From a virus (lineage: Duplodnaviria > Caudoviricetes): a DNA stretch of 64,000 nucleotides. The stretch is taken from IMG/VR virus record IMGVR_UViG_3300020434_000055, one strand, 5' to 3'. The position numbers and the translations under genes were made by a program. The notes beneath the pieces are model-generated. The model did no database searches. It was not told where the DNA came from and was given only the letters and a program-made list of their open reading frames with translations. This document shows positions 2,451-54,354 of this stretch, in pieces. Position 1 is the stretch's first letter. Each line of letters opens with the position of its first letter.

Positions 2451-3440
2451 ATGAGTGCATTAAGCACAATGCTGACAACAAAAAAAGTAGGTTTTACCGA
2501 AGCCGAAGAACAGAATCTTGAGAAAGGAAGAATTTATACATATACTCAAGGGGCTAATTGGTCTAGACTTTGGTGCGGATTTTGTTTTCATCCTGAAGTA
2601 GCAGGAACAGTATATTTAGAATCATGGGGAGCTGGCGGTAGTGGCGGTAAAATGTGCTGTTGCGGTTTTGGCTTACCTGGTAACTCTGCGGCTTATGCCT
2701 ATAGAAAATTTGATCTAGGAGAAAATGGATTTATTTGCGGATGTACAGGTCAATCATGTGGTAATGCAGATACATTATGTCACAGAGGTTGTTCTGAACC
2801 AACGTTCATGAATATTTCTACTGGCTTAGGTGAATGTACTTGCGTTTGTACTCAAGGTGGTGCAGGCGGAGTTTCTTATTGTTCTACTAATACTTCATTT
2901 TATTGTTGTTTTGCGGCAAACGGTTTTTGTGCAACAAAAACTGATAACGATCACTGCGGATGGGTATGTAATATGTGCGATGGAAAACATATAGCTCAAG
3001 CATATTGCGGAGATGCAGGTTTTAATTGTCCAGGAAGAACTTCTTGTGTAGCGGCTTTTGGTTGTTACCCATTATGTATTTGTAATTTTACTCACTACGC
3101 ACCTACACCTGCAGGTATGTTTAGTAAAGAAGGAATGTATGTCGCTTTTAATACAGAAAACGATAACGGATTTTCATCATGGTCAGGACAAGGTGCACAC
3201 CAATTAGAAGCATCTTTAGGGGCTGGAAGATGGCCTACAGGTGGTATACCTTGGGCAACTTGCTGGGGAGCAAGTAAAGGTTGTCACTGTCAAATAGGTG
3301 AACCTTGTATACCTCACGTTCCAGTTGGAATGGGAGGACACGGATCAATGCCATGTCCACAAGTAAGAGATCACGCAAGTAGAGGAGGTCACGGTGGAGT
3401 ACGAATTAAATTTATTCGTAACGACGAACCGACTCAATAA
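2451..3440 (+). CDS. Cys/Gly-rich putative fibre-tip protein, paralogue 1
   Basis: WGAGGSG Gly-rich motif, CCCG, 31 Cys in 329 aa (hand count), C-terminal CPQVRDHASRGGHGGVRIKF; AGGAG SD. Confidence 0.6.
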   Translation: MSALSTMLTTKKVGFTEAEEQNLEKGRIYTYTQGANWSRLWCGFCFHPEVAGTVYLESWGAGGSGGKMCCCGFGLPGNSAAYAYRKFDLGENGFICGCTGQSCGNADTLCHRGCSEPTFMNISTGLGECTCVCTQGGAGGVSYCSTNTSFYCCFAANGFCATKTDNDHCGWVCNMCDGKHIAQAYCGDAGFNCPGRTSCVAAFGCYPLCICNFTHYAPTPAGMFSKEGMYVAFNTENDNGFSSWSGQGAHQLEASLGAGRWPTGGIPWATCWGASKGCHCQIGEPCIPHVPVGMGGHGSMPCPQVRDHASRGGHGGVRIKFIRNDEPTQ

Positions 3441-3452
3441 AGAGAGATTATT

Positions 3453-4466
3453 ATGCCAGCATCATCATTAACAGCATTATTACAAACGAAGTATGATTAC
3501 CCATTAGCTAATGAAACTAATTTAGAAACGGGACAGCTTTTTACATTTTATCCTAGTAATCAATATAGCACTAATTTTTGGTGTCATATTTGTTGGAAAC
3601 CACCAGCAAATGGTATAGCTACAATTGAAGTATGGGGTGCGGCTGGATCAGGTGCAGAAATGTGCTGTTGCGGTGGAGGAATTCCAGGCAATCCAGGCGG
3701 TTATTCTAGAAAAGTATTACCAGAATTTGGAGCATCTTGGGCCGATTGTTATATTTGTGCTCAGATAGGTTTATCTTGTAATAACACAGACGATTTATGT
3801 TACAGAGGAATGTCAGAACCAACTCAAGTTTGTTGGTTAGCTGGTGATTCCGATGGATGTATTTGTGCTCAAGGTGGTAGAGGTGGAACATCATTCTGCT
3901 CATCTAGTCCAGCAATGTATTGTTGTTACCTAACAAATGACTGGTGTGGTACACAAGCCGGTGGAGCAGGTTGCGGTATAATTTGTAATTACAGAGATGA
4001 TGGTGGTACAAATTATGACGGTGCAGATTATTGTGCATTTGCTTATGGTGGAGATGTAAACTGTTATGGCGGATTTAGTTGTATGTACTTTAAAAACTGT
4101 TATCCAAACTGTAACTGTAGACAAAATCCAGTAATTAGAATTCCACCAGGAATGATTTCAGAAAAAGGTGGACAAGTTCAATACGCAATGGATACATCTA
4201 ATCAAAGATCTTATTGGTCAGGAATGGGCGGAATTTTTGGAGTAATGGAACCATTAAATATGGCAACAAGAAATCCAACTCAAGGAGCTCCTTATAATGC
4301 TTGTTGGACAGGTAATGACTCTTGCGGATGTTATCAAGATCAAGGAGCAATTAACTTCTTCCCTGGAGGAATTCCAGGACAAGGTCCTACACCTTGCGAT
4401 GGTGTAAGAGATCACGCTTGGAGAGGCGGAAACGGAATAATGAGGATTAAATTTGTAGCTTCGTAA
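3453..4466 (+). CDS. Cys/Gly-rich putative fibre-tip protein, paralogue 2
   Basis: WGAAGSG, CCCG, 28 Cys in 337 aa, C-terminal CDGVRDHAWRGGNGIMRIKF. Confidence 0.6.
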   Translation: MPASSLTALLQTKYDYPLANETNLETGQLFTFYPSNQYSTNFWCHICWKPPANGIATIEVWGAAGSGAEMCCCGGGIPGNPGGYSRKVLPEFGASWADCYICAQIGLSCNNTDDLCYRGMSEPTQVCWLAGDSDGCICAQGGRGGTSFCSSSPAMYCCYLTNDWCGTQAGGAGCGIICNYRDDGGTNYDGADYCAFAYGGDVNCYGGFSCMYFKNCYPNCNCRQNPVIRIPPGMISEKGGQVQYAMDTSNQRSYWSGMGGIFGVMEPLNMATRNPTQGAPYNACWTGNDSCGCYQDQGAINFFPGGIPGQGPTPCDGVRDHAWRGGNGIMRIKFVAS

Positions 4467-4484
4467 AAAGGAGTAAATAGTATT

Positions 4485-5453
4485 ATGGCAACATTGAAAA
4501 AAATATTAGGTGAAAGAACAGCCGGAGGCGGTATAGAACAAAACATAGAAAAAGGTTATATCTATGCTTATTCTCCAGGTACTCAACATTCTAATTTTTG
4601 TAATGGAGTTTGCTGGACTGCACCTTCAAATGGTAAAGCAATTGTAGAAATTTGGGGAGCTGGTGGATCTGGTTCTCGTATGTGTTGTTGTGGTGATGGA
4701 TTACCAGGCAATGCAGGAGGTTATTCTAAGAAAACTCTTGCAATTACGGCAGATGATACTATTACAGCTTCTTTAGGAATGGCTTGTATGTCTCACCCAC
4801 TTTGTCACTCAGGTTGCGGTAGTCCAACTCAATTATGTTATGTAACAGCCGGTAGTAATGGAAATGGTTGTATGTGTGCTAGAGGTGGATATGGCGGGAA
4901 ATCAATGTGTACTACAGGTACATCTTTTTATTGCTGTTATTCCAACGAAGGATTTTGTTTCAAAAGATGTAACAATGACAATTGTGCATTAATTTGTAAC
5001 GTATGTTCTGGAGCATGGGAAGCCTTAGCATATGGTGGTGACGTAAACTGTTGTGGAGAAATAGGTTGCGTAAGTTATTTTGGATGTTGTCCTCACTGTA
5101 AATGTTTCTTTCAAAGACACGCACCTGTACCAGCAGGTATGTTTGCAGAAAATGGAGCGTTAATTACGTTCCAATCAGAATCAGATACGACTCCAATGTC
5201 GCAATGGTCAGGAAATCAATTATTCCAATATTATGCGTCCCTTAATTTGGCAACAAAAGCGCCAAGACAAGGAAATCCAAGATCATATTGTTGGAGATCA
5301 GACAGATCTTGTGGATGTTATGAATCACAAGGTTGTGCAAATTTATTGCCAGTTGGAGCTGGCGGATTAGGACCACTTGCTTGTCCTGATGTTAGAGACC
5401 ACGGAATTAGAGGTGGTCATGGAGGCGTTAGAATTAAATTTATAGCTTCATAA
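4485..5453 (+). CDS. Cys/Gly-rich putative fibre-tip protein, paralogue 3
   Basis: WGAGGSG, CCCG, 31 Cys in 322 aa, C-terminal CPDVRDHGIRGGHGGVRIKF; AGGAG SD. Confidence 0.6.
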   Translation: MATLKKILGERTAGGGIEQNIEKGYIYAYSPGTQHSNFCNGVCWTAPSNGKAIVEIWGAGGSGSRMCCCGDGLPGNAGGYSKKTLAITADDTITASLGMACMSHPLCHSGCGSPTQLCYVTAGSNGNGCMCARGGYGGKSMCTTGTSFYCCYSNEGFCFKRCNNDNCALICNVCSGAWEALAYGGDVNCCGEIGCVSYFGCCPHCKCFFQRHAPVPAGMFAENGALITFQSESDTTPMSQWSGNQLFQYYASLNLATKAPRQGNPRSYCWRSDRSCGCYESQGCANLLPVGAGGLGPLACPDVRDHGIRGGHGGVRIKFIAS

Positions 5454-5504
5454 TAAATATTAGTATTAACAGGAGTTAGATAAATAGTTTTATAGGAGAA
5501 CACA

Positions 5505-6161
5505 ATGACAGTTAGCGTAGCTTTTAATATTGAAATGCCAAATGAACCGTATGTAGATGATTTTTCAAACGGTGATGTTCATGCGTCAACATATATTGGA
5601 CATAAGTTTATTTCAGTTAGCGTAGATGCAGATGGATGGGTTATTAGTGTTTTATCAGAAGCAGATACAGAAGCAGGATTAGTAGAACAAGCTAAACCTA
5701 CACCTGAAAATCATACAGCATTAACAATTGATGGTACAGCAAATCCTTTTGAAGCGTCTTATGTATGTAGAAAATATACAACAGGTGCAGTAGCAAATTA
5801 CACAGAAAATTTAGGAACAACTGATGATAATGGAGATCCAGAAACGTGGGAATATACATGGCACGAAAACGGAGTTTTATCTCAAATTTACTTACACGGT
5901 ACATTAAAATACTCAGGTGGAGCATTTCAAAAACCTACAATGAGAATACACGCATTTGACCAAGCATCATTTAATGCATCAATGGGTCCTATGTCAGCAG
6001 GATTACAAGAAGCTCTTGATGCCGACTCGGCGAATCAAGTTTATTCAGCAGAGCAAAGACAAGCAATTATAGATCACAAAACATATGTAGATAACATTAC
6101 TACAAAATACGCGGCAGTTAAGCATTGGAAAGTTCCTTTCAAACCAATGCCTCACGTATAA
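5505..6161 (+). CDS. Hypothetical protein, possibly a fibre assembly chaperone
   Basis: 218-aa acidic ORF right after the fibre-like trio. Its C-terminal helix plus HWKVPFKPMP loosely resembles tail-fibre assembly chaperone ends. Confidence 0.4.
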   Translation: MTVSVAFNIEMPNEPYVDDFSNGDVHASTYIGHKFISVSVDADGWVISVLSEADTEAGLVEQAKPTPENHTALTIDGTANPFEASYVCRKYTTGAVANYTENLGTTDDNGDPETWEYTWHENGVLSQIYLHGTLKYSGGAFQKPTMRIHAFDQASFNASMGPMSAGLQEALDADSANQVYSAEQRQAIIDHKTYVDNITTKYAAVKHWKVPFKPMPHV

Positions 6162-6241: not shown

Positions 6242-7213
6242 ATGACTAAAAATAATCCAATATCTAGACCAAAAGCATTTTTTTTAAATGGAGGAATGGG
6301 CAGAATTATTTGTGCCATCCCTGCCCTTGAAAAATATTATGAAGAATCTGATGATAAAGATTTTATCATAGTAGTAGAAGGAATTCAAAATATTCTAAAT
6401 GGTCATCCAACTTTAGACGCTAGAACATATGATTATTCTCATAAAAATTTATTTCATACTAAACTTGTAAAAATGGATGTAGTAAGTTTAGAACCTTATA
6501 GAGTATGGGAATATTATAATCAAAAATGTAATATAATTCAAGCATTTGATATTTTAATTAATAATAAAGGTGTAAGAGAATTGCCTAAACCTAAAATTAA
6601 TTTGAGTAAAGAAGAATTAATGGCAGGAGAAAAAGCAATAAATGATATTAAAAAACAAATTAAAAAAGACAAAGTAATTATTATTCAACCCTTCGGTCGA
6701 GCAATTCAACAAATAGATAGTAGTTTTGTAGATAAATCTAACCGAAGTATGGAATTTAAAAATTTAAAAAATTTAATAAGAAAATTTCAGGAAAAAGATT
6801 ATGCAGTAGCTATAATGGCAGAATTTGGAATAGAATTTAAAGATGAAAAATATAAAGATGAAGTAGCAATGCCTGAAAAAATTGACTTAAGACAATGGAC
6901 AGCAATTATAAAATATGCTGATCAATTTTTAGGTTGTGACAGTGTAGGACAACATTTGTCTTATATAGTTGATACACCATGTACAGTTGTTATAGGACAA
7001 ACTTATCCTATTAACACATCATACCCTAAAACAAAAAATATTTCTATAATTGATATGGGACAACTAGAACGAGAATATGATCCAATAAGAATAACAGTAG
7101 ATGAAAGAGTTAGTAGACAAGGTGAAAAATTAATGTGGATGAGTAAAGAAATAGAAGATCTTGTTGTAAAAGTAGTATTAGGTGAAGAAACAATAGAGGA
7201 AGAAGATGAATAA
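6242..7213 (+). CDS. GT-B glycosyltransferase, GT9 (heptosyltransferase)-like, paralogue A
   Basis: N-terminal NGGMGRIICAIP, central IIIQPFG, C-terminal ADQFLGCDSVGQHLS...PCTVVIGQT (compare GT9 DSGxxHLA...PTVxLFGxT). Confidence 0.6.
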   Translation: MTKNNPISRPKAFFLNGGMGRIICAIPALEKYYEESDDKDFIIVVEGIQNILNGHPTLDARTYDYSHKNLFHTKLVKMDVVSLEPYRVWEYYNQKCNIIQAFDILINNKGVRELPKPKINLSKEELMAGEKAINDIKKQIKKDKVIIIQPFGRAIQQIDSSFVDKSNRSMEFKNLKNLIRKFQEKDYAVAIMAEFGIEFKDEKYKDEVAMPEKIDLRQWTAIIKYADQFLGCDSVGQHLSYIVDTPCTVVIGQTYPINTSYPKTKNISIIDMGQLEREYDPIRITVDERVSRQGEKLMWMSKEIEDLVVKVVLGEETIEEEDE

Positions 7214-9014
7214 AAAATCTGGATGGATTGCCGCAATTTCTAGAGGACATAATTCAGGAATATGTCTAATGAAAGATGGAGAAATTATTTTTGCAATTGA
7301 AGAAGAAAGATTATCAAGACACAAATATGATGGTGGTCCTTATATGAGTATGTTGGAAATATTAAAATATACAGACACTTTAGATTATTTAATTATAGCA
7401 CATACCCAACCATTAACTGATCCTTCTACTGGTAGAGTTGATTATACAGGTGATGATGTATATACAGGTTTAGCAAGAAAATTAGGATTGATAGATAGAA
7501 AAGTAGATTTAAAAAAACATCCTCAAGTAATAGATCTCAGTCATATTCATCACAAGTTACACGCCGCCTGTGCTTTTTATAGATCTGGATTTGATGAAGC
7601 GTGTGCGGTTATTTGTGATGGTGCAGGAACTTTTATGCCTATTAATAGTTCTCTTGTAGGTGATATGACAATGTTTGAAGTTGAATCTATATTTGATTGT
7701 TCTTATCCTAATAATATATTTACTGTATGGAAACATTATGGTACTGGTACAACATCTCCAGGTGCTCTTATGACACAACAATCAGACAAAATGGGAGAGC
7801 CTGGAAGAACTCATCAAGTATTATTGTCAGACAAGGCAGGAATTACTAAAGTTTATGAAGCAGTTACTCAATACTGTGGATTTTCTGCCATTGAAGCAGG
7901 AAAAACAATGGGATTATTTCCTTATGGAAAACCTAATGATAGAATCCCTAAACTTTTTCAACAAGAAGGAAGATTTTCACAATCTAATAGAAATGTAATT
8001 CTTCCTACATATCCAAATGCGGCTATAGTAAATGAACAAATGTATGAATATCTTAATAATGTACCTGAAAGTTGTTCTGATGTTTCTACATTAGATAATA
8101 GGAGAGATTTAGCATATGCTTGTCAAATAGAAACTCAAGCAGAATTATTAAAAGTAATTTACCAGGCTGTAAAAAGAACAGGTAGAAAAAATGTTGTATT
8201 ATCAGGTGGCTATGGATTAAATTGTGTAGCAAATTATTTTTATCTTGAATCTTTAAGAAAAGATGGAATTAATTTATTTGTTGAACCTGTGTCAAATGAC
8301 GCTGGAACAGCCATTGGAGCGGCTCTTTTATTTTATTATGCTTTGTCAGAGGATAAGACAAAAAGACCACTTACTACATTGTGTCAAGGTCCTGAAAGAA
8401 AATATACATTAGAACAAATACAAGAATTAACAAATAAAGAAGGTATTGAATTAGTAGATGCAAACGATAAAGATATAGTCAAATTAATGATAGAAAAAAA
8501 TATTGTTTCTATGTTTCAAGGAAAATCAGAGAGTGGACCTAGAGCATTAGGTAATAGAAGTATTTTATTTGATCCTACATTTAAAGATGGTAAAGATTTT
8601 GTTAATATAGTTAAACGTAGAGAATATTTTAGACCATTTGCAGGGTCTATATTACATGAACACGTACATGATTGGTTTGATTTAAGAGGAATGGAAGAAA
8701 GTCCTTTTATGATGTATGCTGTAAATTGTCAAGAAGGAATAGCAGAAAAAATTCCTAGCATTATACACATAGATGGTACTTGTAGAATACAAACAGTTAA
8801 AGAAGAACAAAATCCATTGTATTATAAATTAATTAAAGAGTTTTATGATCAAACAAAAATACCAATAGTGTTTAATACGTCATTTAATTTGGCAGGAGAA
8901 CCACTTGTAGAAACATTACAAGATGCTATATTAACTCTTGAACACTCTCTTTTAGAATATTTGTATCTTCCAGAATATGGAAAAATGATAAAGGTAAAAA
9001 ATGTCGAGAAATAG
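7206..9014 (+). CDS. O-carbamoyltransferase, NodU/CmcH/TobZ family
   Basis: All expected motifs present: GHNS...EEERLSR, HHKLHAACAF, CDGAG, GKTMGLFPYG, GGYGLNCVAN, NDAGTAIGAA, GPRALGNRSIL, KRREYFRPFA, HIDGTCRIQTV, NTSFNLAGEP. Confidence 0.93.
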   Translation: MNKKSGWIAAISRGHNSGICLMKDGEIIFAIEEERLSRHKYDGGPYMSMLEILKYTDTLDYLIIAHTQPLTDPSTGRVDYTGDDVYTGLARKLGLIDRKVDLKKHPQVIDLSHIHHKLHAACAFYRSGFDEACAVICDGAGTFMPINSSLVGDMTMFEVESIFDCSYPNNIFTVWKHYGTGTTSPGALMTQQSDKMGEPGRTHQVLLSDKAGITKVYEAVTQYCGFSAIEAGKTMGLFPYGKPNDRIPKLFQQEGRFSQSNRNVILPTYPNAAIVNEQMYEYLNNVPESCSDVSTLDNRRDLAYACQIETQAELLKVIYQAVKRTGRKNVVLSGGYGLNCVANYFYLESLRKDGINLFVEPVSNDAGTAIGAALLFYYALSEDKTKRPLTTLCQGPERKYTLEQIQELTNKEGIELVDANDKDIVKLMIEKNIVSMFQGKSESGPRALGNRSILFDPTFKDGKDFVNIVKRREYFRPFAGSILHEHVHDWFDLRGMEESPFMMYAVNCQEGIAEKIPSIIHIDGTCRIQTVKEEQNPLYYKLIKEFYDQTKIPIVFNTSFNLAGEPLVETLQDAILTLEHSLLEYLYLPEYGKMIKVKNVEK

Positions 9015-9951
9015 TGCTATCTTTTTAAATGGTGGAGCAGGAAGAATGCTCAATTCAATACCTGCTTTAGAGAATTATCAAAAAGAAAATCCGGATGATG
9101 ATTTTGTAATAGTTTGTGAAGGTGGTACAGATGTTTTAAAAGGACATCCAACGTTACATTTTAGAACTTATGATGCTTGGCATAAAAACATTTTTCAAGA
9201 AATTTTAAAAGATAGAAATATAATTAGTCCAGAACCTTATAGAATTTGGGAATACTATACTCAAAAATGTAGTCTTGCTCAAGCATATGACATTGCACTT
9301 AATAATAAAGGCATAAGAGAATTATCTAAACCTTCAATAAAATTAAGTAAAGATGAAATTTTATATGCTCGAAAAATGTTAACAGAAATAAAAAATAAGA
9401 CTAAAAAAGACAAAGTAATTATAGTACAACCATTTGGACGAGGTATTAAAAAAGAAGATAAAGATATAGTAGACATTACAGGTAGAAGTATTGAAATAAA
9501 AAATCTTTATAATATTGTAAGAAAATTGGCTAAAAATTACAGTATATTAGTTATGACTGAAGTAGCTTTAGAATTTAATAAGCATATGTCAACACCTATT
9601 GCTATGCCACCTAATGTTCATATTAGAATATGGATGGCTTTAATTAAACAATGTGATCACTTTTTAGGTTGTGATAGTGTAGGACAACATATTGCTTATG
9701 CTTTTGATAAAACTACTACAGCTATAATAGGGTCTACATACCCTATTAACACGTCATATCCTGACGAAGAAACGTTTGACATCATAGATTTGGGCAAAGA
9801 TGACCGAGTATATAGCCCTATAAGAATAACTGTAGATGAATTTTCTGACAGAATAAATGAAGGTATAATGGACATGGATGACCAGCAAGAACAAAGGATA
9901 ATTCAGTCAGTTAATAGAATGATAAAACACGGTAAAAATAACCAATCATAA
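9001..9951 (+). CDS. GT-B glycosyltransferase, GT9-like, paralogue B
   Basis: Aligns by eye with 6242..7213 over its length: NGGAGR, EPYRIWEYY, IIVQPFGR, FLGCDSVGQH, YPINTSYP, YSPIRITVDE. Confidence 0.6.
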   Translation: MSRNSAIFLNGGAGRMLNSIPALENYQKENPDDDFVIVCEGGTDVLKGHPTLHFRTYDAWHKNIFQEILKDRNIISPEPYRIWEYYTQKCSLAQAYDIALNNKGIRELSKPSIKLSKDEILYARKMLTEIKNKTKKDKVIIVQPFGRGIKKEDKDIVDITGRSIEIKNLYNIVRKLAKNYSILVMTEVALEFNKHMSTPIAMPPNVHIRIWMALIKQCDHFLGCDSVGQHIAYAFDKTTTAIIGSTYPINTSYPDEETFDIIDLGKDDRVYSPIRITVDEFSDRINEGIMDMDDQQEQRIIQSVNRMIKHGKNNQS

Positions 9952-10017: not shown

Positions 10018-10434
10018 ATGTTTGATGTGTCAAGATTATTTGGTAAAGGCGACAAAAATACGTTGTTAATGAAAAATGGATTAAATTTTTCATACAGCGG
10101 CCCTTATACTGTGGTAGAAGAAGAGGTGGTTTTAGACCAATGGCACGTTAATACCTTCTGTACAGCAGAGTATACAATATCTGTAGATTACGATACAAAT
10201 AATAAAGAAATTATTAGATGTTTAATGGTAGCTAGTCCTGAAAATAGTTCTCTTACAATTTATGGTAGATCAAATTTAGGAAATGATTTAGTAAAATTAA
10301 CTAGTGCAGTTACTAATTCATATGTACAATTAAAAATAGACCCTGCAAATAAAACAGCAACAACAAAATATACAGGATCAAAAGTTATCTTTAAAGCAAC
10401 ATATTTTCAAACAATAAATGCTTTAAAACTTTAG
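10018..10434 (+). CDS. Hypothetical virion protein
   Basis: 138-aa beta-rich ORF in the structural region, with upstream GTAAATA and AAGGA SD. Confidence 0.5.
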   Translation: MFDVSRLFGKGDKNTLLMKNGLNFSYSGPYTVVEEEVVLDQWHVNTFCTAEYTISVDYDTNNKEIIRCLMVASPENSSLTIYGRSNLGNDLVKLTSAVTNSYVQLKIDPANKTATTKYTGSKVIFKATYFQTINALKL

Positions 10435-12658: not shown

Positions 12659-12662
12659 TTAA

Positions 12663-23660: not shown

Positions 23661-23673
23661 GTAAATAATTATC

Positions 23674-26449: not shown

Positions 26450-26455
26450 ACGTTA

Positions 26456-26461
26456 TATTTA
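26456..26461 (-). promoter_or_regulatory. T4-like late promoter core TAAATA, 6 nt before gp14-like ATG
   Basis: Minus strand reads AATAAATA-TAACGT-ATG; no SD. Confidence 0.6.
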
Positions 26462-26480
26462 TTCTTAGGCAGGACGTTGA

Positions 26481-41876: not shown

Positions 41877-41879
41877 ACT

Positions 41880-42571: not shown

Positions 42572-42615
42572 TAAATCCTCTCTAACATCCTTCAAATAAA
42601 TATTACAAAATAGCC

Positions 42616-46653: not shown

Positions 46654-47225
46654 TGATGTTCGGTAAAAATCCAGGTACAGATAAAACCTGGATAAGAATT
46701 CCTAAAGATAGCATTGGTGCAGAATTAGGTGTATGGCGAGGAGATAGTTCTGTAAAATTTCTAAACAATGCAAAACACATACATTTAGTAGATAGTTGGA
46801 GTACTATACCATATGAAAACTCTGATGAATTTGGTAATTACCAAGCCTATCTTGATAGATATTCTATACTTGTAAAGTCTAATAATCCAGAAGATTTTCA
46901 AAAATACTATGACAAAATTTATAATAGTGTTGTTAAAAGATTTAAAAATAGTCCTGTAACAATTTATCGTATGTCAACTAAAGAATGGTTTGAAAGTTTT
47001 AAAGAAAAATTAGATTGGATATATGTAGACGCTAGTCATAGCTTTGAAGGTTGTTATTATGATTTAATTAATGCTGTAAAATTTATTAAGCCAGGAGGAA
47101 CTTTATTTGGTGATGATTATGGAGATAAAAAACCAAATGTAAAAAAAGCCGTAGATAAGTTTATTGCTGATACAGGTTATGAATTTAATAATTTTCATTT
47201 AGATCAATTTGAGGTAAAGATATAA
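46653..47225 (+). CDS. Class I SAM-dependent methyltransferase (Methyltransf_24-like)
   Basis: GAELGVWRG, LVDSW, LDWIYVDASHS, IKPGGTLFGDDY. Confidence 0.85.
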   Translation: MMFGKNPGTDKTWIRIPKDSIGAELGVWRGDSSVKFLNNAKHIHLVDSWSTIPYENSDEFGNYQAYLDRYSILVKSNNPEDFQKYYDKIYNSVVKRFKNSPVTIYRMSTKEWFESFKEKLDWIYVDASHSFEGCYYDLINAVKFIKPGGTLFGDDYGDKKPNVKKAVDKFIADTGYEFNNFHLDQFEVKI

Positions 47226-47770
47226 TGCACCCTACGTCAATGGAAAATATGCGTTTAGCAAAAACAAAAATACCTGATCTAGGAAATAATATAACAATAG
47301 TAGATGTAGGTGGTAGAGGAACAAAACAAATACCTGTTAGATCTTATCAAAAAGTTTTTAAAGACGTATACAAACATTATTACGTTGCTGACATCAATGA
47401 AGGTCCTGGTGTTACTCACATTATGCCAGAACAATACAAATTACCATTTGCAGATAATTCAATAGATTTAGTAGTATCTGGGCAAACATTAGAACACGTA
47501 AGGAACCCTTTTAAAATGATGACTGAAATAAAAAGAATTATAAAACCAAATAGATATATGATAATAATAGCACCAAGCACAGGACCAAATCATGATGATA
47601 TAGATTGTTGGCGTTTCATGGCTAACAGTTTTGAATCAATAGCTCAGGAATGTAATATTAAATTTATTGAATCTTGGATAACAAATGATGCTGTTTGTGA
47701 TAAAAAAAGTTATAGATTTGAAAGTAGACGAAATATTTGGTCAGATCATACATTCATAGGACAAAAATAA
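47225..47770 (+). CDS. Class I SAM-dependent methyltransferase
   Basis: IVDVGG, DLVVSGQTLEHVRNPF, IKPNRYMIIIAP, DCWRF. Confidence 0.8.
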   Translation: MHPTSMENMRLAKTKIPDLGNNITIVDVGGRGTKQIPVRSYQKVFKDVYKHYYVADINEGPGVTHIMPEQYKLPFADNSIDLVVSGQTLEHVRNPFKMMTEIKRIIKPNRYMIIIAPSTGPNHDDIDCWRFMANSFESIAQECNIKFIESWITNDAVCDKKSYRFESRRNIWSDHTFIGQK

Positions 47771-48471
47771 TGACAATGTCAAACAAAGATGCGGCGGAAT
47801 GGCAAAAACAATTAGACAAATTACAAATGTCTACTTTAAATGAATTGTTTTTAAAACATAAATGCCTTAAAGGTATAGACCTAAAATATGATGAAATTTA
47901 TGAAGCTGACTTTAAAAAATTAAGAAATGAACCAATTAATATATTAGAAATAGGTGTAGATCAAGGACGAAGTATAGCTGTTTGGTTAGATTATTTTCCT
48001 AATGCTAAAATTTATGCTATAGATATTTTTACAAGAATGCATGAATCTCGTATTAAATCTCTTAAAGACAACAGAGTACAATATTTAAAAATAGACAGCA
48101 CTCACCCAGATGTACACAATCAAGTTGCACAATGGAAAACTGAATTTGATATTGTAATAGATGATGGTAGACATACTCCCGAAGCAAATGCATTAACATT
48201 TAAAAGCATTGCTCCTTTTTTAAAACCAAATGGCATATATTACATAGAAGATATTTGGCCTATAGATCAAATGACTAAATCAGATCTTAAAAATTTAGGA
48301 TTTGATTTTAAAAAACAAATAGCTTGGGCTCAAAAATATCGTAAAGGAGAATTTACAGAGAACAAATGGAAAATGTTTATTAATACACTTAAAGGATATA
48401 AAATAAAAAAGTTCGACAATAGAAAAAAATGTAAACTATTAGATAGTTACATTTATAAAATTACAAAATGA
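47770..48471 (+). CDS. Sugar O-methyltransferase-like (class I SAM)
   Basis: ILEIGVDQG.S..VW.DYFPNA.IYAIDI, FDIVIDDGRH, LKPNGIYYIEDI. Start 47770 (TAATG overlap) preferred. Confidence 0.8.
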   Translation: MTMSNKDAAEWQKQLDKLQMSTLNELFLKHKCLKGIDLKYDEIYEADFKKLRNEPINILEIGVDQGRSIAVWLDYFPNAKIYAIDIFTRMHESRIKSLKDNRVQYLKIDSTHPDVHNQVAQWKTEFDIVIDDGRHTPEANALTFKSIAPFLKPNGIYYIEDIWPIDQMTKSDLKNLGFDFKKQIAWAQKYRKGEFTENKWKMFINTLKGYKIKKFDNRKKCKLLDSYIYKITK

Positions 48472-49136
48472 AAGCATTTATAATAACAATTTTTGACAAT
48501 GAAGATAGTGTTGCTTATAGTAATAATGTTATTAAATCAATTAAAGAAACAAATTCTGATTTAGAACCTATTGTTTATCCAGCTGTCACTCCAGCAACAA
48601 TGTGGAAAGTTGATTGGACATGGCCCTGGCATAAAAAGAAAATTTGTGAAAAAACAAAATTATTATTAAAACCATATAAAACGTATGATATGTATAAAAG
48701 AATTGCCGCGGCAGGTAGCCATTATGCTTTATGGAACAAATGTGTTAAATTAAATGAACCAATAGTAATTTGTGAACATGATGCATACTTTACTAGAAAA
48801 TTTACACCATTTGATTTTGAAGGAGGTTGTTTAGGATTAAATGATCCTGCAAAAGCTACACCAAAAGCAGAACTTTTTCATGACACATTAAAAAATTTAG
48901 GTGAAGGAATACACGAAGCACCTTGGGTAATGAAAAAAGAAATACCACAAGGAATGGCAGGTAATAGTACGTTTGTTATAAAACCATGGGCCGCAAAAGA
49001 AATAATTAAAGCACAAGACGAAATTGGTTGGTGGCCTAATGATGCCATAACTTGTAAACAACTTTTTCCATGGATTAAAGTCGCATATCCATATTATTCG
49101 AAAGTACAAAACATCAAATCAACTACATCATTATAA
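48468..49136 (+). CDS. Glycosyltransferase family 25-like
   Basis: IAAAGSHYALWNKC...IVICEHDAYF...GNSTFVIKPWAAK...PND. Confidence 0.7.
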   Translation: MKAFIITIFDNEDSVAYSNNVIKSIKETNSDLEPIVYPAVTPATMWKVDWTWPWHKKKICEKTKLLLKPYKTYDMYKRIAAAGSHYALWNKCVKLNEPIVICEHDAYFTRKFTPFDFEGGCLGLNDPAKATPKAELFHDTLKNLGEGIHEAPWVMKKEIPQGMAGNSTFVIKPWAAKEIIKAQDEIGWWPNDAITCKQLFPWIKVAYPYYSKVQNIKSTTSL

Positions 49137-49163
49137 AACTGGTTAATAAATATTGGTAATCCA

Positions 49164-49886
49164 ATGAGAATATTATTAACAGGTCATAAAGGTTTTATAG
49201 GTTCAGCTCTTTATAAAAGATTAGAAGAAAAAAATCATAAAATTTTTGGTATAGATACTAAAGCAAATTCAAACATTTTTACGGCAGAACTTCCGGAAGT
49301 TGATTTAGTTATTCATTTAGCCGCCATAGGTGGGGTAAGAGAATCATTGGCAGATCCTAAAAAATATTGGTCGGTTAATGTTGAAGGAACTAAAAGAATT
49401 ATAGAACATTATCAAAATACAAGAGTGTTATATGCTGGATCAAGTTCACAATATGAACCACATTTAAATCCTTATGCCGCTAGTAAAAATGCAATTGAAT
49501 ATATTCCTCATCCTAATTCTGTTGTAATGAGATTTCATACAGTTTATTCTGATACACCAAGATTTAATATGTTTTTTGACAAGTTATTAAATGGAAAATT
49601 AGAATATGTAACTAATCATAAAAGGGATTTCCTTCATATTGAAGACTTATGTGATGCAATACTAACTATTATTGACAATCCTTTTTTTAAAGGTCCCGTA
49701 GATATAGGCACAGGACAAAGTGTTAGGATACGAGATATAGCACCTAATTTACCAGTAAAAGAAATTACTTTAGGAGAAAGACTAGAAACATTAGCTGACA
49801 TTAGTAAAATGAAACAATTAGGATGGTCACCTAAATGGACAGTACAAAAATTTTTAACACAACAGGGATTTGATGTAAAATTATGA
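49164..49886 (+). CDS. NAD-dependent epimerase/dehydratase (extended SDR)
   Basis: TGHKGFIGS, VIHLAA, NVEGT, SSS.Y, PYAASK, RDFLHIEDL, DIGTG. Confidence 0.88.
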   Translation: MRILLTGHKGFIGSALYKRLEEKNHKIFGIDTKANSNIFTAELPEVDLVIHLAAIGGVRESLADPKKYWSVNVEGTKRIIEHYQNTRVLYAGSSSQYEPHLNPYAASKNAIEYIPHPNSVVMRFHTVYSDTPRFNMFFDKLLNGKLEYVTNHKRDFLHIEDLCDAILTIIDNPFFKGPVDIGTGQSVRIRDIAPNLPVKEITLGERLETLADISKMKQLGWSPKWTVQKFLTQQGFDVKL

Positions 49887-50233
49887 AAGCAGGAAAAATT
49901 TGGGGACAAACAGAATTAATACACGCAAATGGTGTATTAGAATTTCATAGAATAGATTTTAAAGCAGGTGGAGTTTGTTCTAAACACAAACACAAATATA
50001 AATGGAATGGCTTTTATGTTGTTTCAGGCAAAATGATTGTAAGAGTTTGGAAAGATGATCAAGGACTAGTAGATGAAACATTATTAAATGCTGGTGACTG
50101 GACAAGAATTAAACCAGGAGAATATCATCAATTTGAAGGAGTAGAAGATGGTATTGCTTTTGAATTATACTGGGCACAATTTGATCATGATGATATAGAA
50201 AGAGAATATTCCGGGTCTAAAAAAAATGATTAA
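49883..50233 (+). CDS. Cupin-fold protein
   Basis: KIWG...CSKHKHKYKWNGFYV...IKPGEYHQF. Confidence 0.7.
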   Translation: MKAGKIWGQTELIHANGVLEFHRIDFKAGGVCSKHKHKYKWNGFYVVSGKMIVRVWKDDQGLVDETLLNAGDWTRIKPGEYHQFEGVEDGIAFELYWAQFDHDDIEREYSGSKKND

Positions 50234-50903
50234 TGTTTTTATAGGATATGATAACAAAGAAAAAGTAGCGTTCAATGTACTATCGTATAGTATAATAAAA
50301 AATAGTACTAGACCTGTTGCTATTACTCCAGTTAATTTACAAAATATAAAAGATAACTTTACTAGAGAACGTAGTAATATAGAATCAACTGAATTTAGTT
50401 TTAGTAGATTTATAGTACCTCACCTTATGAATTATAAGGGGTGGGCATTGTTTATGGATTGTGACCAGTTAATGTTAACAGATATTGCTGAGTTATGGAG
50501 ATTAAGAGATGAACGTTATGCTGTACAAGTATGTAAGCACGATTATGTACCTAGAAAAGAACAGAAATTTTTAGGACAAGTACAAACAAAATATGAAAAG
50601 AAAAATTGGTCAAGTTTTATGTTAATGAATTGTGATAAATGTACAGCACTGACTCCTGATTATGTTAATAATGCAACAGGATTACAATTACATCAATTTA
50701 AATGGTTAGCAGATGAAAGTCTAATAGGTGATTTACCTTTAGAATGGAATTGGTTAGTTGGAGAATATGAAAAGAAAGATGATGTTAATAATGTTCATTT
50801 TACAGAAGGTGGACCTTGGTTTGTAGATTATTTGCATTGTGATTATGCAGACGAATGGCAAAAATTAAAACAAGAAACAACACAAACTAATTTAATAAAA
50901 TAG
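50226..50903 (+). CDS. GT-A glycosyltransferase (GT8-related)
   Basis: VFIGYD, STEFSFSRF..P, ALFMDCD, KNWSSFML, LPLEWNWLVG, HFTEGGPWF. Confidence 0.8.
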   Translation: MINVFIGYDNKEKVAFNVLSYSIIKNSTRPVAITPVNLQNIKDNFTRERSNIESTEFSFSRFIVPHLMNYKGWALFMDCDQLMLTDIAELWRLRDERYAVQVCKHDYVPRKEQKFLGQVQTKYEKKNWSSFMLMNCDKCTALTPDYVNNATGLQLHQFKWLADESLIGDLPLEWNWLVGEYEKKDDVNNVHFTEGGPWFVDYLHCDYADEWQKLKQETTQTNLIK

Positions 50904-50910
50904 GAATCAA

Positions 50911-51729
50911 ATGGCAAGATGGTACGCAGTTGATCATAAAGATGAAATCTTAAAAAATTGGATGGCGGGTATTAAACACGTTGTTGCAGAGCCATCTGAA
51001 TATAATCATTGGGATCATATAAAAGGTACCTCTATAGAAAATCCTGTATCCATTAGAGGAATGACCAATCATAAAATTATTCGTAATTGTTGGGCAACAA
51101 AAAGAGATTTTTATTACGTAGATACAGGATACATAGGTAATAATAAAAAAAGAAAAGAATGGCATAGAGTAGTTCTTAATAATGTTCAACATCGAAAAGT
51201 TATTGATGTTCCTTCTGACAGATTTGATTGGCTCTTTATGCATGATCCTGAACTTAAATTTCCCGGTTGGAGGAAGGACGGTCGAGCAATATTACTTGTA
51301 ACGCCTAGTCCTAAACCGTGTAGATTCTATAATGTAGACCGAGATAAATGGGTAGAAGATACTGTGAATACATTAAAGAAATATACAGATAGAGAAATTA
51401 TTATTAGAGAAAAAGTGGAAAGACGTTTAAGAGTAGGTACAGGTCACATATATACTCAAATAAGAAATGATGACATTTATGCTTTGGTCACTTATCAATC
51501 TATAGGAGCTATAGAAGGAATAATAAGAGGCGTTCCAGCATTTACTAGTGCTCCTACAGCCGCTGATTCTGTAAGCAATAAAGATTTAACAAAAATAGAA
51601 ACACCTTGGTATCCTGACGAAGAACAAATATATAAATGGCAAAAATGGTTAGCATATTGTCAATATACTTCTGCAGAATTATCAAATGGTAATGCATTAA
51701 GATTTATAAAAGACAAGGGATTAAAATAA
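50911..51729 (+). CDS. GT-B protein, capsule-biosynthesis (KpsS/KpsC)-like, copy 1
   Basis: YYVDTGY...W...G..ILLV.PS...REIIIREK...ALVTYQSIGAIEGIIRGVPAF...W...LAYCQYT..E. Confidence 0.5.
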   Translation: MARWYAVDHKDEILKNWMAGIKHVVAEPSEYNHWDHIKGTSIENPVSIRGMTNHKIIRNCWATKRDFYYVDTGYIGNNKKRKEWHRVVLNNVQHRKVIDVPSDRFDWLFMHDPELKFPGWRKDGRAILLVTPSPKPCRFYNVDRDKWVEDTVNTLKKYTDREIIIREKVERRLRVGTGHIYTQIRNDDIYALVTYQSIGAIEGIIRGVPAFTSAPTAADSVSNKDLTKIETPWYPDEEQIYKWQKWLAYCQYTSAELSNGNALRFIKDKGLK

Positions 51730-52682
51730 TGTTAAGAGTAGTTGCATATATGAGAGTAATACCGCCTGGAAATAAAAATCCACAAAAGCCTTTAATTATT
51801 AAAAATTTTATAGAAGGAGTAAACAGAGCAGGCGATCAAGGGCTAGTTATAAACTCATGGCAAATTGTAAATGCTGATGTATCAGTAATACAAGGTTTTG
51901 TACATAAAGATTCTAAACAAACACGACATTTACTTTTAAGAAAAAATGTTTATGAAAATCAAATAAAATTAAAGAAAAAATGTTTAATTGTTGATAGTAG
52001 TTTATTTTTATGGGCAGATCCTAAACAAGAAAAAACATATTTAAGATATGGCTTTAATGGAATTTTTCCAAATACAGCAGAATATTGTAATGAAACTCCT
52101 GATCCTGCGAGGTGGGAAAAAATTAAAAAAGATCTTAATGTAGATCTTAAACCTTGGAGAATTAATAAAAATGCAGGAGATTGGATTTTAATTTGTTGCC
52201 AACGAGATGGTGGTTGGAGTATGGATGGTACGCCAGTAATGCAATGGCTAACAGATGTTATTAGAAAAATTCGAAAATATTCTGGTAGAAGAATTAAAGT
52301 AAGATTTCACCCAGGGGACAAAAATACAGGACAACATCACCAACAAATAAGAAAATGGATAACGACAAATAGTAAAGATTATAGTAATGTTGGAATTAGT
52401 ACTTCAAAAGATATAAGAGATGAATATGCCGGTGCCTGTGCAGTTGTAGGTCATAACTCAAGTCCAACTGTATCTAGTGTTATAGAAGGAATACCTACTT
52501 TTGTAACTGATCCATTACGTGCTCAGTCATCTCCAGTTGCACATCATTCATTTGAATTTATAGAAAAACCTAAAGAATTTGATAGAACAGTATGGGTACA
52601 ACGAATGGCACAAATACATTGGACTTTAAATGAATTAAGAGATGGTACTGCTTGGAGACATTTAAGGAAATGGGTTAAATGA
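51729..52682 (+). CDS. GT-B protein, capsule-biosynthesis (KpsS/KpsC)-like, copy 2
   Basis: PWR...ILICCQ.DGGWS...IKVRFHPG...AVVGHNSSPTVSSVIEGIPTF...W...HW...E...G.AW. Confidence 0.5.
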   Translation: MLRVVAYMRVIPPGNKNPQKPLIIKNFIEGVNRAGDQGLVINSWQIVNADVSVIQGFVHKDSKQTRHLLLRKNVYENQIKLKKKCLIVDSSLFLWADPKQEKTYLRYGFNGIFPNTAEYCNETPDPARWEKIKKDLNVDLKPWRINKNAGDWILICCQRDGGWSMDGTPVMQWLTDVIRKIRKYSGRRIKVRFHPGDKNTGQHHQQIRKWITTNSKDYSNVGISTSKDIRDEYAGACAVVGHNSSPTVSSVIEGIPTFVTDPLRAQSSPVAHHSFEFIEKPKEFDRTVWVQRMAQIHWTLNELRDGTAWRHLRKWVK

Positions 52683-53518
52683 AAAATTATACAGTAGTAA
52701 CTACCTTTAATAAAAAAGGAATGGATTTATATGGACAAAAATTTATAAATTCTTTTAATAAAAATGTGGATGAAAGTATACCTTTAATAGTATATGCAGA
52801 AAATTGTAATCCAACAGGAGATAGTAGAACAACAATTTATAAGAGTGAAGTTATAACAGATTTAATGGCATTCAAAAATAAATGGAAAGATGTTCCTAAA
52901 GCAAATGGTATATGTCCTTTTCCTGAAAAGCGTCCACGAGATCATCATAAAAAATTTAAATGGGACGCTATAAGATTTTCAAATAAAGTTTATTCAGTAC
53001 TTCATGCTACAGAAGATAACACCCGCGATTGGGTAATATGGATGGATGCTGATATTGTTGTACATAGTATTTGGCCTATACAAGACTTTCTAAAATTATT
53101 CCCTGATGACAAATGGTTAACATATGTGGGTAGAGGACCAGGTTCACAAACTTGGCCTGAGTGTGGATTTTATGGAATGAATTTAAAACAACCTGCTTGT
53201 TTAGAATTTTTAAAAGAATTTAAACGTGTTTATGACGATCCTGAAAATGGTATTTTTTTATTATCAGAATGGCATGACTCTTTTGTTTTTGGAAAACTAT
53301 TAAATGATGCAAAACAACGTAATGCTAATGTGCTAGATTATAGTAAAAACATATACAACAGGACCGCAAAGACGGGCGGAGGCGGGCATCCATTCATTAA
53401 TTGCGTATTGGGTACATGGCTAGATCATTTAAAAGGTGATTCCAGAAAACAAAAAGGAACTAGTTTAAAAACAGATTTAATGAGACAAAGATCTGAAAAT
53501 TATTGGAAAACAATATGA
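52679..53518 (+). CDS. GT-A-like nucleotide-diphospho-sugar transferase
   Basis: VVTTF, WDAIRFSNKV, VIWMDADI (DxD), PECGF, EWHDSFVF, DHLKG. Confidence 0.65.
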   Translation: MKNYTVVTTFNKKGMDLYGQKFINSFNKNVDESIPLIVYAENCNPTGDSRTTIYKSEVITDLMAFKNKWKDVPKANGICPFPEKRPRDHHKKFKWDAIRFSNKVYSVLHATEDNTRDWVIWMDADIVVHSIWPIQDFLKLFPDDKWLTYVGRGPGSQTWPECGFYGMNLKQPACLEFLKEFKRVYDDPENGIFLLSEWHDSFVFGKLLNDAKQRNANVLDYSKNIYNRTAKTGGGGHPFINCVLGTWLDHLKGDSRKQKGTSLKTDLMRQRSENYWKTI

Positions 53519-54354
53519 AATTTGGCGTGTTTACAGAAAACGGATCTTTAAATAGTCTTCCCGTTTTTAACTCAGTTATAAATGGTTTATTAAAACAAGG
53601 ACATGAAGTAGTTCAAAATTCTATGGACGTAGATGTACCTGTTATATGGTCATTACTCTGGCACGGTCGTATGGCTCCAAATAAAACAATATGGGAAACT
53701 TTTCATTCACAAAATAAAAAAGTATTAGTAATAGAAGTTGGAAACATTAAAAGAAATCATACATGGAAAGTTGGTATAGATGGAATAAATCGAAAAGCAG
53801 ATTTTGGTCCAAAAAATAATGGACCAGATAGAGTAAACAAATTTAATTTAAAATATCTTCCTTGGAGAGAAAAAGGTGAACATATAATATTATGTGTTCA
53901 ACATGATAAAAGTGAACAATGGAAAAATATGCCACCTTTAAATCAATACATACACGAAACTATATGGGAAATAAGAAAATATACAAAAAGAAAAATAATA
54001 ATTAGGACCCATCCTAGATGTCCAGTTAAAATAAATTTAAGAGATGAAAAAGATGTAGGTATGCAGATGCCTAAATTAATTAAAGATAGTTATGATGATT
54101 TTGATTTAGATTTAAAAAATTGTTGGGCCGTAGTTAGTTGGAGTAGTAACCCAGGTCCTACAGCAATTCTTAATGGAATACCAGCATTTGTAGGAGAGCA
54201 GAGTCTTGCATATGACGTAGGAAACACTGATCTCGCCCACATAGAAGACCCTAAAATGCCCGACAGGCAACAATGGCTACAAGATTACGCATATACAGAG
54301 TGGACAACCAACGAAATAGCAGAAGGATTACCGTTTGAACGATTGACTTTTTGA
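53503..54354 (+). CDS. GT-B protein, capsule-biosynthesis (KpsS/KpsC)-like, copy 3
   Basis: LPWR..G.HIILCVQ...IIIRTHPR...AVVSWSSNPGPTAILNGIPAF...W...Y.EW...E...G. Confidence 0.5.
   Translation: MENNMKFGVFTENGSLNSLPVFNSVINGLLKQGHEVVQNSMDVDVPVIWSLLWHGRMAPNKTIWETFHSQNKKVLVIEVGNIKRNHTWKVGIDGINRKADFGPKNNGPDRVNKFNLKYLPWREKGEHIILCVQHDKSEQWKNMPPLNQYIHETIWEIRKYTKRKIIIRTHPRCPVKINLRDEKDVGMQMPKLIKDSYDDFDLDLKNCWAVVSWSSNPGPTAILNGIPAFVGEQSLAYDVGNTDLAHIEDPKMPDRQQWLQDYAYTEWTTNEIAEGLPFERLTF

Follow-up and report, generated by a model that had tools for sequence, protein, structure and literature searches.

The window analysed here, a stretch of 64,000 nucleotides (64 kb) from IMG/VR record IMGVR_UViG_3300020434_000055, comes from an uncultured marine T4-like phage, recognisable by its gp15, tail sheath, large terminase, gp32, UvsX, UvsW-like helicase and primase, and carries about 25 genes for sugar building in operons with a late-type motif at their head. 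These genes lie in three modules, namely a cassette of two GT9-like glycosyltransferases and a carbamoyltransferase inside the tail-fibre genes, a heptose cassette at the end of the neck operon, and an island between the uvsX and uvsW genes. Our best reading, which we hold tentatively and at somewhat less than an even chance, is that the phage makes a fibre-linked carbamoyl-heptose decoration and that the island encodes a separate, variable glycan. The three modules had been described in a prediction made earlier from the DNA (the original prediction), and all of them were found where it had placed them, with their gene content upheld after small corrections (Pfam, NCBIfam and fold search). 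The family scan of the window covered 60 open reading frames (ORFs) with Pfam, and NCBIfam and PHROGs were used for selected proteins. The cassette lies in a conserved block of fibre genes, laid out as follows.

160..1668, plus strand: tail-fibre protein, C-terminal part, with which the conserved block begins (phrog_9851, E 1.8e-52).
1683..2399, plus strand: two small conserved proteins of 106 and 110 amino acids (aa) after the fibre gene, in 64/80 GT9-like loci, with ATAAATA at 2031.
2451..5453, plus strand: three Cys/Gly-rich paralogues of 329, 337 and 322 aa (phrog_4205; weak Gly_rich_2 match).
5480..6161, plus strand: late-type box (5480-5486) and a 218-aa protein heading the GT9/carbamoyltransferase unit (homologue in L004 about 61% identical).
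6242..7213, plus strand: GT9-fold glycosyltransferase a, GT9a (phrog_8954, E 1.7e-124; Pfam GT9 19.1 bits, sub-threshold).
7206..9014, plus strand: NodU/CmcH-type carbamoyltransferase (Carbam_trans_C 192.8 bits, Carbam_trans_N 101.5 bits).
9001..9951, plus strand: GT9-fold glycosyltransferase b, GT9b, 316 aa (phrog_8954; Pfam GT9 21.1 bits, sub-threshold; fold search).
10018..10434, plus strand: conserved 138-aa protein directly after the cassette, in 76/80 GT9-like loci, with no family match in the scan.
10469..20198, plus strand: 729-aa and 2511-aa Ser/Thr/Gly-rich virion proteins (phrog_5838 virion structural protein, E 1e-234).

The two GT9-like proteins are 51% identical to each other and both match phrog_8954 (E 1e-124 to 1e-135), and both stay under the Pfam PF01075 cut-off of 22 bits. 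The NCBIfam models for RfaQ, heptosyltransferase I and heptosyltransferase III give them 17-22 bits against cut-offs of 170-467, and a profile of the family run against PDB sequences found no GT9 chain. A model of GT9b built from 18 family members (predicted local distance difference test, pLDDT, 82.7) retrieved GT9 structures (3tov, WaaF, WaaC, TibC) at PDB ranks 1-29 and 31 with E values of 1e-11 to 3e-7, with other GT-B families following from E ~1e-5, and heptosyltransferases made up 20 of the 21 top matches among Swiss-Prot models. As modelled, the GT9-like proteins have a GT-B fold with GT9 enzymes as their nearest structural relatives. The stretch D225-S226-x-G228-x-H230 is invariant in the 18 family members and coincides with the PF01075 match; we take D-[ST]-G-x-x-H to be the C-terminal donor-site motif that defines GT9. 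The N-terminal loop reads F-x-N-G-G-A-G-R, and the catalytic Asp of GT9 enzymes lies N-terminally (Asp13 of WaaC). The donor of both proteins would be ADP-heptose. Both domains of the carbamoyltransferase score above threshold (24 for N, 27 for C); its best NCBIfam match is NodU, at 135 bits against an equivalog cut-off of 1000, and it is 62% identical to the S-SSM7 enzyme. The original prediction of a GT9-like/carbamoyltransferase/GT9-like cassette among the fibre genes holds for the carbamoyltransferase and for the GT9 fold, with the reservation that the GT9-like proteins miss the Pfam and NCBIfam cut-offs.

The GT9-like profile matched 568 IMG/VR stretches, and in 80/80 loci examined among them the family is placed inside the fibre block. 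Block order is constant in close and distant relatives, running from the fibre C-terminus through two ~105-aa proteins, two or three Cys/Gly-rich proteins, one or two GT9-like proteins, the carbamoyltransferase and a ~135-aa protein to the giant fibre protein. The carbamoyltransferase is present in 78 of the 80 loci, the giant 2511-aa protein in 68, homologues of the 160-1668 protein in 65 (48-63% identity in cyanophages and in contigs from metagenome-assembled genomes, MAGs), and ORFs of Cys/Gly-rich composition in 69, with exactly three of them in 60; P-SSM2 and S-SSM7 have such ORFs too, and the block with them. With 4,755 metagenomic proteins, the GT9-like family is a large one. When a pattern of two peptide motifs was scanned over one prokaryotic genome per species (185,579 species), the family appeared in eight loci only, all on MAG contigs, of which the six with visible neighbours carry fibre-block genes, and in no bacterial lipopolysaccharide (LPS) locus. 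This occurrence in the fibre block only, together with its absence from bacterial LPS loci in that scan, makes the GT9-like family look phage-specific and tied to the fibre. Among the MAG contigs carrying the block, L176 and L181 were binned to 'Neomarinimicrobiota' and L175 and L179 to 'Methanobacteriota', which are unrelated bacterial and archaeal taxa, and one of these contigs is 335 kb; they are probably mis-binned jumbo-phage contigs.

The three Cys/Gly-rich paralogues (pairwise 40-44% identity; 8-10% Cys, 15-16% Gly) are candidate fibre-tip proteins and acceptors. Their Cys content, and the 22% Ser+Thr of the 2511-aa protein, agree with what the original prediction had said of the neighbouring structural proteins. 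The 2511-aa protein (12663-20198) also contains many repeats of ~90 aa and shares a 167-residue segment, 51% identical, with the upstream fibre protein at 160-1668, the N-terminal part of which matches the E1_FCCH domain.

The donor would be supplied by the second module, which follows the gp15 gene on the minus strand.

26456-26462, minus strand: late-type box ATAAATA heading the neck operon.
25292..26449, minus strand: virion protein (phrog_11591).
23674..25137, minus strand: gp15-like sheath stabiliser (T4-gp15_tss 85.3 bits).
23229..23660, minus strand: NUDIX hydrolase (NUDIX 53.8 bits).
21991..23232, minus strand: HldE-like bifunctional heptose-7-phosphate kinase/heptose-1-phosphate adenylyltransferase (PfkB 103.1 bits, CTP_transf_like 75.1 bits).
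21396..22001, minus strand: possible 2-oxoglutarate (2OG)-Fe(II)-oxygenase-like protein, a weak call (PF13640 23.5 bits against 27).
20581..21423, minus strand: HldD-like relative of ADP-heptose 6-epimerase, a short-chain dehydrogenase/reductase (SDR; TIGR02197 237.6 bits against a cut-off of 274.6).
20199..20591, minus strand: cupin, the last gene of the heptose cassette (Cupin_2 32.5 bits).

From 26449 to 20199(-) the genes run in this order with overlapping junctions, so that the coupling of hldE, hldD and cupin genes to the neck genes, as originally proposed, is confirmed, with scores that lie below the equivalog cut-offs. The HldE-like protein has PfkB at residues 4-273 and CTP_transf_like at 287-391, and HldE is its best NCBIfam match at 318 bits against a cut-off of 521 (domain I, 223 against 345; domain II, 150 against 181.5), the next unrelated family being ribokinase at 61 bits. 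For the SDR, TIGR02197 is again the best match, beginning at residue 50, and GalE reaches 74 bits. Since these scores are under the equivalog cut-offs, both proteins appear to be divergent relatives, and the substrate of the HldE-like enzyme would presumably be heptose-7-phosphate. A single-sequence PDB search with the 2OG-like protein returned nothing, and the scanned ORFs included no member of the SIS or HAD families, to which GmhA and GmhB would belong. All seven cultured phages that bear a GT9-like gene (S-SSM6a, S-SSM7, S-CAM1, S-CAM3, Sf-FS3, P-SSM2 and P-SSM5) also have HldE- and HldD-like genes, which supports an ADP-heptose-type donor. In P-SSM2 and S-SSM7 the heptose genes (nucleotidyltransferase, kinase, GmhA, cupin, epimerase) are clustered between fibre and neck genes, and a 2OG or prolyl 4-hydroxylase (P4H)-like gene adjoins the epimerase gene in P-SSM2 and Sf-FS3; the cupin in both cyanophage clusters and this adjoining gene suggest that the heptose is tailored.

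Two further candidates were rejected. The NUDIX hydrolase is a neck-operon gene that stands outside the heptose cassette, as the relative G007 keeps it (54% identity) and has no heptose genes. A collagen-like route of 2OG hydroxylase plus GT25 was dropped because the 2511-aa protein has no Gly-X-Y repeats and the oxygenase call is weak. Five relatives (G002, G003, G004, G006 and G010) carry, in or near the island region, a 259-293-aa cytidylyltransferase-like frame that is 36-47% identical to HldE residues 277-376; it stands directly after uvsX in G002, G003, G006 and G010, and the window's island has no such gene.

All three modules share a promoter-like motif. The original prediction had named TAAATA as a late motif before the heptose cassette and the island; it does head both, and the box is more exactly ATAAATA and heads the fibre-block unit as well. 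The T4 late promoter TATAAATA has 0 copies in the window against 16.7 expected by chance, and was replaced as the candidate box by ATAAATA with A, C or G before it, so that T at -1 seems to be strongly avoided. Sixteen of the 18 copies of ATAAATA lie within 60 nt upstream of a same-strand ORF start, a zone that makes up 3.1% of the sequence. The motif stands upstream of structural genes, those of the sheath, tube and terminase among them, and heads the units with starts at 5505 (a unit that continues into the GT9 cassette, with no further copy between the box at 5480-5486 and 9951), at 26449(-) (neck and heptose genes), at 42616 and at 49164; there is none before the gp32, uvsX or primase gene. 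The modules are thus wired like structural genes, which suggests that they are expressed late. A scan of the island for sigma-70 promoters and terminators performed no better than on shuffled sequence. At 26450-26490, where the neck operon and the gene at 26477 meet, each strand carries one ATAAATA copy, the two placed back to back, and because the plus-strand copy falls inside the listed TTG-start ORF at 26477, that gene probably starts further downstream.

The third module is the island, whose features, with the genes that border it, are these.

40812..42571, plus strand: UvsX-like recombinase and a conserved 152-aa gene, the left border (RecA 57.7 bits; border fixed in >25 relatives).
42596..43494, plus strand: late-type box ATAAATA (42596-42602) and first island gene (42616-43494; 292 aa, basic), for which Pfam, PHROGs, NCBIfam and PDB sequences all gave no match.
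43491..44066, plus strand: GT25 glycosyltransferase (PF01755 51.3 bits against 24).
44063..44923, plus strand: GT8-like glycosyltransferase (2104 metagenomic homologues, several with PF01501 or named LPS glycosyltransferase; single-sequence PDB search empty).
44916..45380, plus strand: RpiB-type sugar-phosphate isomerase (LacAB_rpiB 139.5 bits).
45377..46156, plus strand: 259-aa protein with a GT9-type D-S-G-x-x-H, a weak call (PF01075 20.2 bits over 32 residues).
46153..48471, plus strand: four class-I S-adenosylmethionine (SAM) methyltransferases (Methyltransf_23 48.5, Methyltransf_24 50.1, Methyltransf_11 41.1 and Methyltransf_24 39.9 bits).
48468..49136, plus strand: second GT25 glycosyltransferase (PF01755 37.9 bits against 24).
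49146..50233, plus strand: internal late-type box (49146-49152), SDR epimerase/reductase and cupin (Epimerase 94 bits, Cupin_2 34.2 bits).
50226..50903, plus strand: GT8-like glycosyltransferase of the island core (PF01501 24.0 against 24.3 bits; 42-48% identity in nearly all relatives).
50911..51729 and 51729..52682, plus strand: two paralogues of 272 and 317 aa like transferases of β-3-deoxy-D-manno-oct-2-ulosonic acid (β-Kdo), from paralogy, alignment and fold.
52679..53518, plus strand: 279-aa core protein, possibly a GT-A transferase, a lead only (Atlas neighbours include GT8/Nucleotid_trans clusters; conserved in relatives).
53503..54354, plus strand: third β-Kdo-transferase-like paralogue, 283 aa, the modelled copy (pLDDT 87.8).
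54351..57112, plus strand: basic 436-aa protein (54351-55661; no match in PDB sequences or NCBIfam) and UvsW-like helicase (ResIII, DEAD, Helicase_C), the right border, with overlapping junctions that couple it translationally to the island.

The island is therefore real, with 17 ORFs in 42616-54354 rather than the 16 genes first counted, and its four methyltransferases, RpiB, SDR and cupin all exceed the Pfam cut-offs as predicted. Out of about nine further glycosyltransferase-like proteins that had been claimed, five have good support (the two GT25 and three Kdo-transferase-like proteins), the two GT8-like ones are borderline or indirect, and 52679-53518 is a lead. The supposed third GT9-like enzyme, 45377-46156, does carry the GT9 motif, within a match that is under the cut-off and 32 residues long; hhalign against the GT9-like profile gave E 0.062, and an Atlas result is likewise a lead only. 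Both GT25 matches cover the N-terminal half of the PF01755 profile, and the methyltransferases have weak TylF and rhamnosyl-O-methyltransferase/CmcI matches too. Many island proteins are basic and soluble, and for most of them PHROGs and NCBIfam returned nothing.

The model of 53503-54354 has WbbB, KpsC and KrkA as its top 23 PDB matches (E from 7e-8) and 'capsule polysaccharide biosynthesis protein' clusters in AFDB (E down to 3e-20); a β-Kdo-transferase-like profile run against PDB sequences gave no meaningful match. Judged from this model, the three paralogues have a fold like that of retaining β-Kdo transferases. Q-x-D and, ~35 residues later, H-P are kept in 51729-52682 and 53503-54354 and both are lost in 50911-51729, which may be inactive or have taken on a new role. 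Across more than 25 relatives the island has fixed borders and a core of the GT8-like gene, the Kdo-transferase-like paralogues and the 52679-like and 54351-like genes; its first half (42616-50233) is variable and fully shared only with the closest relative (L009), apart from RpiB. The RpiB gene varies within the population, being missing from L009, and in one contig of a marine RNA library position 44905 runs directly on to 45369, so that RpiB is skipped. The conserved core of the island is Kdo-transferase-like and GT8-like, with one weak 32-residue motif match as the link to heptose.

The relatives also show how the modules are inherited. The window's DNA had no close match among 50,697 phage records, and its large terminase is nearest to that of the Pseudomonas jumbo phage PA5oct group (53% identity). 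A UvsX query retrieved at least 599 related IMG/VR stretches, the best 80 of them 73-94% identical, which indicates an abundant environmental clade, and related contigs of 203-268 kb, rated 57-75% complete, imply a jumbo genome. G002, G006 and G010 contain all three modules. In G007 (L171-L174), a 223-kb syntenic relative with a UvsX 73% identical, the GT9 block, gp15 and NUDIX are kept, while only ~1.2 kb remains at the HldE-2OG-HldD-cupin site and only ~1.3 kb between the post-uvsX gene and the helicase; positions 22,300-24,100 and 44,980-46,160 of its contig are sites lacking the island or the heptose cassette, and a 159-residue match to the 54351-55661 protein is retained. In G011 and G003 the island is present and HldE is absent behind gp15. 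Such independent gain and loss does not support a single integrated system with one chemistry, as the original prediction had it: the synteny check that it called for shows a conserved fibre block, and a heptose cassette and an island, the latter with a Kdo-transferase-like/GT8-like core, that come and go separately. Two other genes lie among the structural genes of the window, a TnsA-like endonuclease (33851-34288, 68.8 bits; relatives 54-59% identical) between the tube-region genes and the terminase, and a T4 gp1-like deoxynucleotide monophosphate kinase (27307-27900; G007 copy 42% identical) between the neck and sheath genes.

We propose that three separately inherited sugar modules would be expressed late in infection. 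The HldE/2OG-like/HldD-like/cupin cassette would convert host heptose-7-phosphate to an ADP-heptose-type donor, probably a tailored stereoisomer or hydroxylated form, with the isomerase and phosphatase steps (GmhA, GmhB) supplied by the host. The two GT9-fold transferases would attach heptose to an acceptor that is produced alongside them, at the same time and in the same place, and the NodU-type carbamoyltransferase would O-carbamoylate it; the most likely acceptor would be one of the co-inherited Cys/Gly-rich fibre-tip proteins or a neighbouring fibre protein. The hypervariable uvsX/uvsW island would build a second glycan resembling a lipooligosaccharide (LOS) core by means of its GT25, GT8-like and β-Kdo-transferase-like enzymes and then methylate it, and this glycan may extend the virion glycan or go onto another acceptor. 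A virion target is favoured by the strict fibre context of the GT9/carbamoyltransferase module, by the late-type wiring, and by enzymes that are all soluble and come without a flippase, polymerase or ligase: no transmembrane segment was predicted in any protein of the three modules, and none of those three functions is among the family matches of modules or window. It is doubtful, and a broader claim, that marine T4-like phages in general share a glycosylation in which GT9-fold enzymes and carbamoyltransferase place carbamoyl-heptose on Cys/Gly-rich fibre-tip adhesins, with the jumbo island extending it by Kdo-like, hexose and O-methyl sugars.

Several observations weigh against decoration of the virion in this form. 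The modules are gained and lost independently, the late timing is deduced from the motif, and RNA-library contigs, which contain island pieces at 100% identity, are uninformative on transcription, strand and timing. The 2OG-oxygenase call is sub-threshold and weak. A binding prediction for GT9b with the Cys/Gly-rich protein at 4485-5453 gave 0.22 against a mark of 0.32, which is uninformative either way. By template modelling (TM) score the GT9b model resembles LPS heptosyltransferases, which act on lipid (0.6-0.67), more than TibC and Aah, which act on protein (~0.5). Finally, the families of the island (GT8, GT9, GT25 and Kdo transferases) are builders of LPS/LOS cores, and many of its proteins are basic.

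These last points lead to the strongest rival, that the modules remodel the host envelope, their enzymes working on the inner face of the host membrane to make a changed LPS/LOS core or a capsule anchor linked through Kdo, for example to block superinfection or to keep progeny from sticking to debris. GT8, GT9, GT25 and Kdo-transferase-like enzymes belong to the families that make LPS/LOS cores and capsule linkers, many proteins of the island share a basic, soluble character with the peripheral Waa enzymes, and the variable gene content of the island resembles surface-glycan loci. Envelope modification is also the published reading of the cyanophage 'LPS genes' (PMC7824862; PMC3037559, which leaves their function open), and carbamoyl-heptose is known in the LPS core (PMC8005017). 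All modules, however, follow a late-type box and lie within or next to structural operons, GT9-like genes turned up in the fibre block and, in the two-motif scan, in no bacterial LPS locus, and the modules contain no membrane or export components. To our knowledge, the LPS of marine Synechococcus lacks heptose and Kdo, in which case the usual acceptor would be missing in the hosts of cyanophages, a further point against this rival, which we consider unlikely.

We regard it as improbable, though in keeping with the independent inheritance, that the targets are split, the fibre and heptose cassettes decorating the virion and the island acting elsewhere, e.g., on host LPS core or DNA. The island core has a different chemistry and a different, basic protein make-up, and 22 kb separate the island, whose neighbours are recombination and replication genes, from the other modules; against this, the island uses the same late-type box, twice, and nothing observed points positively to a second target. 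Still less probable is a soluble secondary metabolite derived from sugar, a small glycoside of the kind suggested for the S-SSM6a cluster, to which the carbamoyltransferase, the 2OG oxygenase, the cupins, the methyltransferases and the heptose genes would all contribute. Iyer et al. so read a cyanophage cluster of carbamoyltransferase, halogenase, 2OG and cupin genes (PMC7824862), the S-SSM7 cluster includes a second Nol gene and one for a tryptophan halogenase, and all of the enzymes are soluble, but the window has no halogenase, nonribosomal peptide synthetase/polyketide synthase or aglycone-forming genes, and a metabolite would leave unexplained the strict placement of GT9-like and carbamoyltransferase genes among fibre genes (80/80 loci). 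Least probable of all is hypermodification of DNA, in which heptose, Kdo or hexose would be added to modified phage bases to evade restriction: transfer of heptose or Kdo to 5-hydroxymethylcytosine by phage GT-B enzymes is known (bioRxiv 10.1101/2023.12.21.572611), the island with its basic proteins sits between uvsX and uvsW genes, and there is the gp1-like kinase at 27307-27900, but hydroxymethylase, TET/JBP and cytosine methyltransferase are all missing from the window (the thymidylate-synthase/hydroxymethylase family is also absent from five related contigs, all fragments, hence of little weight), the fold matches GT9 with no T4 glucosyltransferase among the 50 PDB matches listed, and no known DNA glycan would call for as many as ~9 transferases, four methyltransferases and a carbamoyltransferase.

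What the 'LPS genes' of large marine cyanophages do has been an open question since 2005-2010. A GT9/carbamoyltransferase pair that looks phage-specific and is fixed in the fibre-tip block turns a vague annotation into a specific hypothesis, open to test in the cultured phages S-SSM7, S-CAM1, S-CAM3 and P-SSM2. Heptosylation of fibre proteins, if it occurs, would represent a novel type of virion modification, with consequences for how viruses that are among the most abundant in the sea recognise their hosts. If the island extends the fibre glycan, the virion would bear a coat that resembles LOS and varies between strains, serving to tune adsorption or to hide the fibre. The separable uvsX/uvsW island is in itself a natural experiment in glycan diversification.

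Virus-encoded soluble glycosyltransferases are known to decorate structural proteins in mycobacteriophages and in chlorovirus PBCV-1, the latter with a sugar methyltransferase as well. Those systems involve other enzyme families and other sugars and have been shown experimentally, whereas the window is known from its genes alone. TibC and Aah, the bacterial autotransporter heptosyltransferases (BAHT), share the GT9 fold and, through O-glycosylation of protein with ADP-heptose, provide a precedent for heptose on protein. BAHT enzymes have an N-terminal extension with an iron-binding Cys motif and form dodecamers. GT9b aligns to them only from their residue ~98 onward (~90-128 across the matched models), so the phage proteins appear to lack the N-terminal extension, and NCBIfam listed weak LPS-heptosyltransferase matches and no BAHT model, the presence of such a model in the library being unconfirmed. 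The likeness to TibC/AAH-type enzymes on which the original prediction drew therefore gives way to a closer one with LPS-type GT9 enzymes. WbbB (GT99), KpsC (GT107) and KrkA are the best structural matches of the island paralogues, two of which keep Q-x-D and H-P motifs whose Asp may correspond to the nucleophile of these enzymes (WbbB D232, KpsC D160); sequence identity is only 13-16%, one paralogue is without both motifs, and the window has no genes for CMP-Kdo synthesis.

In the inner core of Pseudomonas LPS, the GT9 enzymes WaaC and WaaF attach the heptoses, the second of which is the substrate of the carbamoyltransferase WapO (PMC8005017). The proposed phage pathway has the ADP-heptose donor, GT9-fold transferases and heptose O-carbamoylation in common with it, in the window as deduced from genes; unlike the Pseudomonas enzymes, the GT9-like proteins are under all curated GT9 thresholds and occur in the fibre block only, and no heptose kinases were found in the window. 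The cyanophage 'LPS genes' (T4-GC 302-308) are of unknown function, and whether they are stuffer DNA has been asked as a possibility (PMC3037559). Like the window, the clusters of P-SSM2, S-SSM7 and S-SM2 have homologous genes between tail-fibre and neck genes with Cys/Gly-rich proteins upstream, at identities of 43-50% for the GT9-like proteins, 46-62% for the carbamoyltransferase, 40-45% for the HldD-like protein, 37-38% for the cupin and 27-41% for the parts of HldE. HldE is split in the cyanophages and fused in the window, GmhA is present there and absent here, and only the window has a second GT9-like copy, a heptose cassette appended to the neck operon and a separate uvsX/uvsW island; its lineage, with a terminase nearest to that of PA5oct (53%), also differs from that of the cyanophages. 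In chemistry the nearest known system is thus the Pseudomonas inner core, in homology it is the cyanophage 'LPS genes', and what is new is a system of the cyanophage type in a new phage lineage, together with an unusually large island of Kdo-transferase-like and methyltransferase genes.

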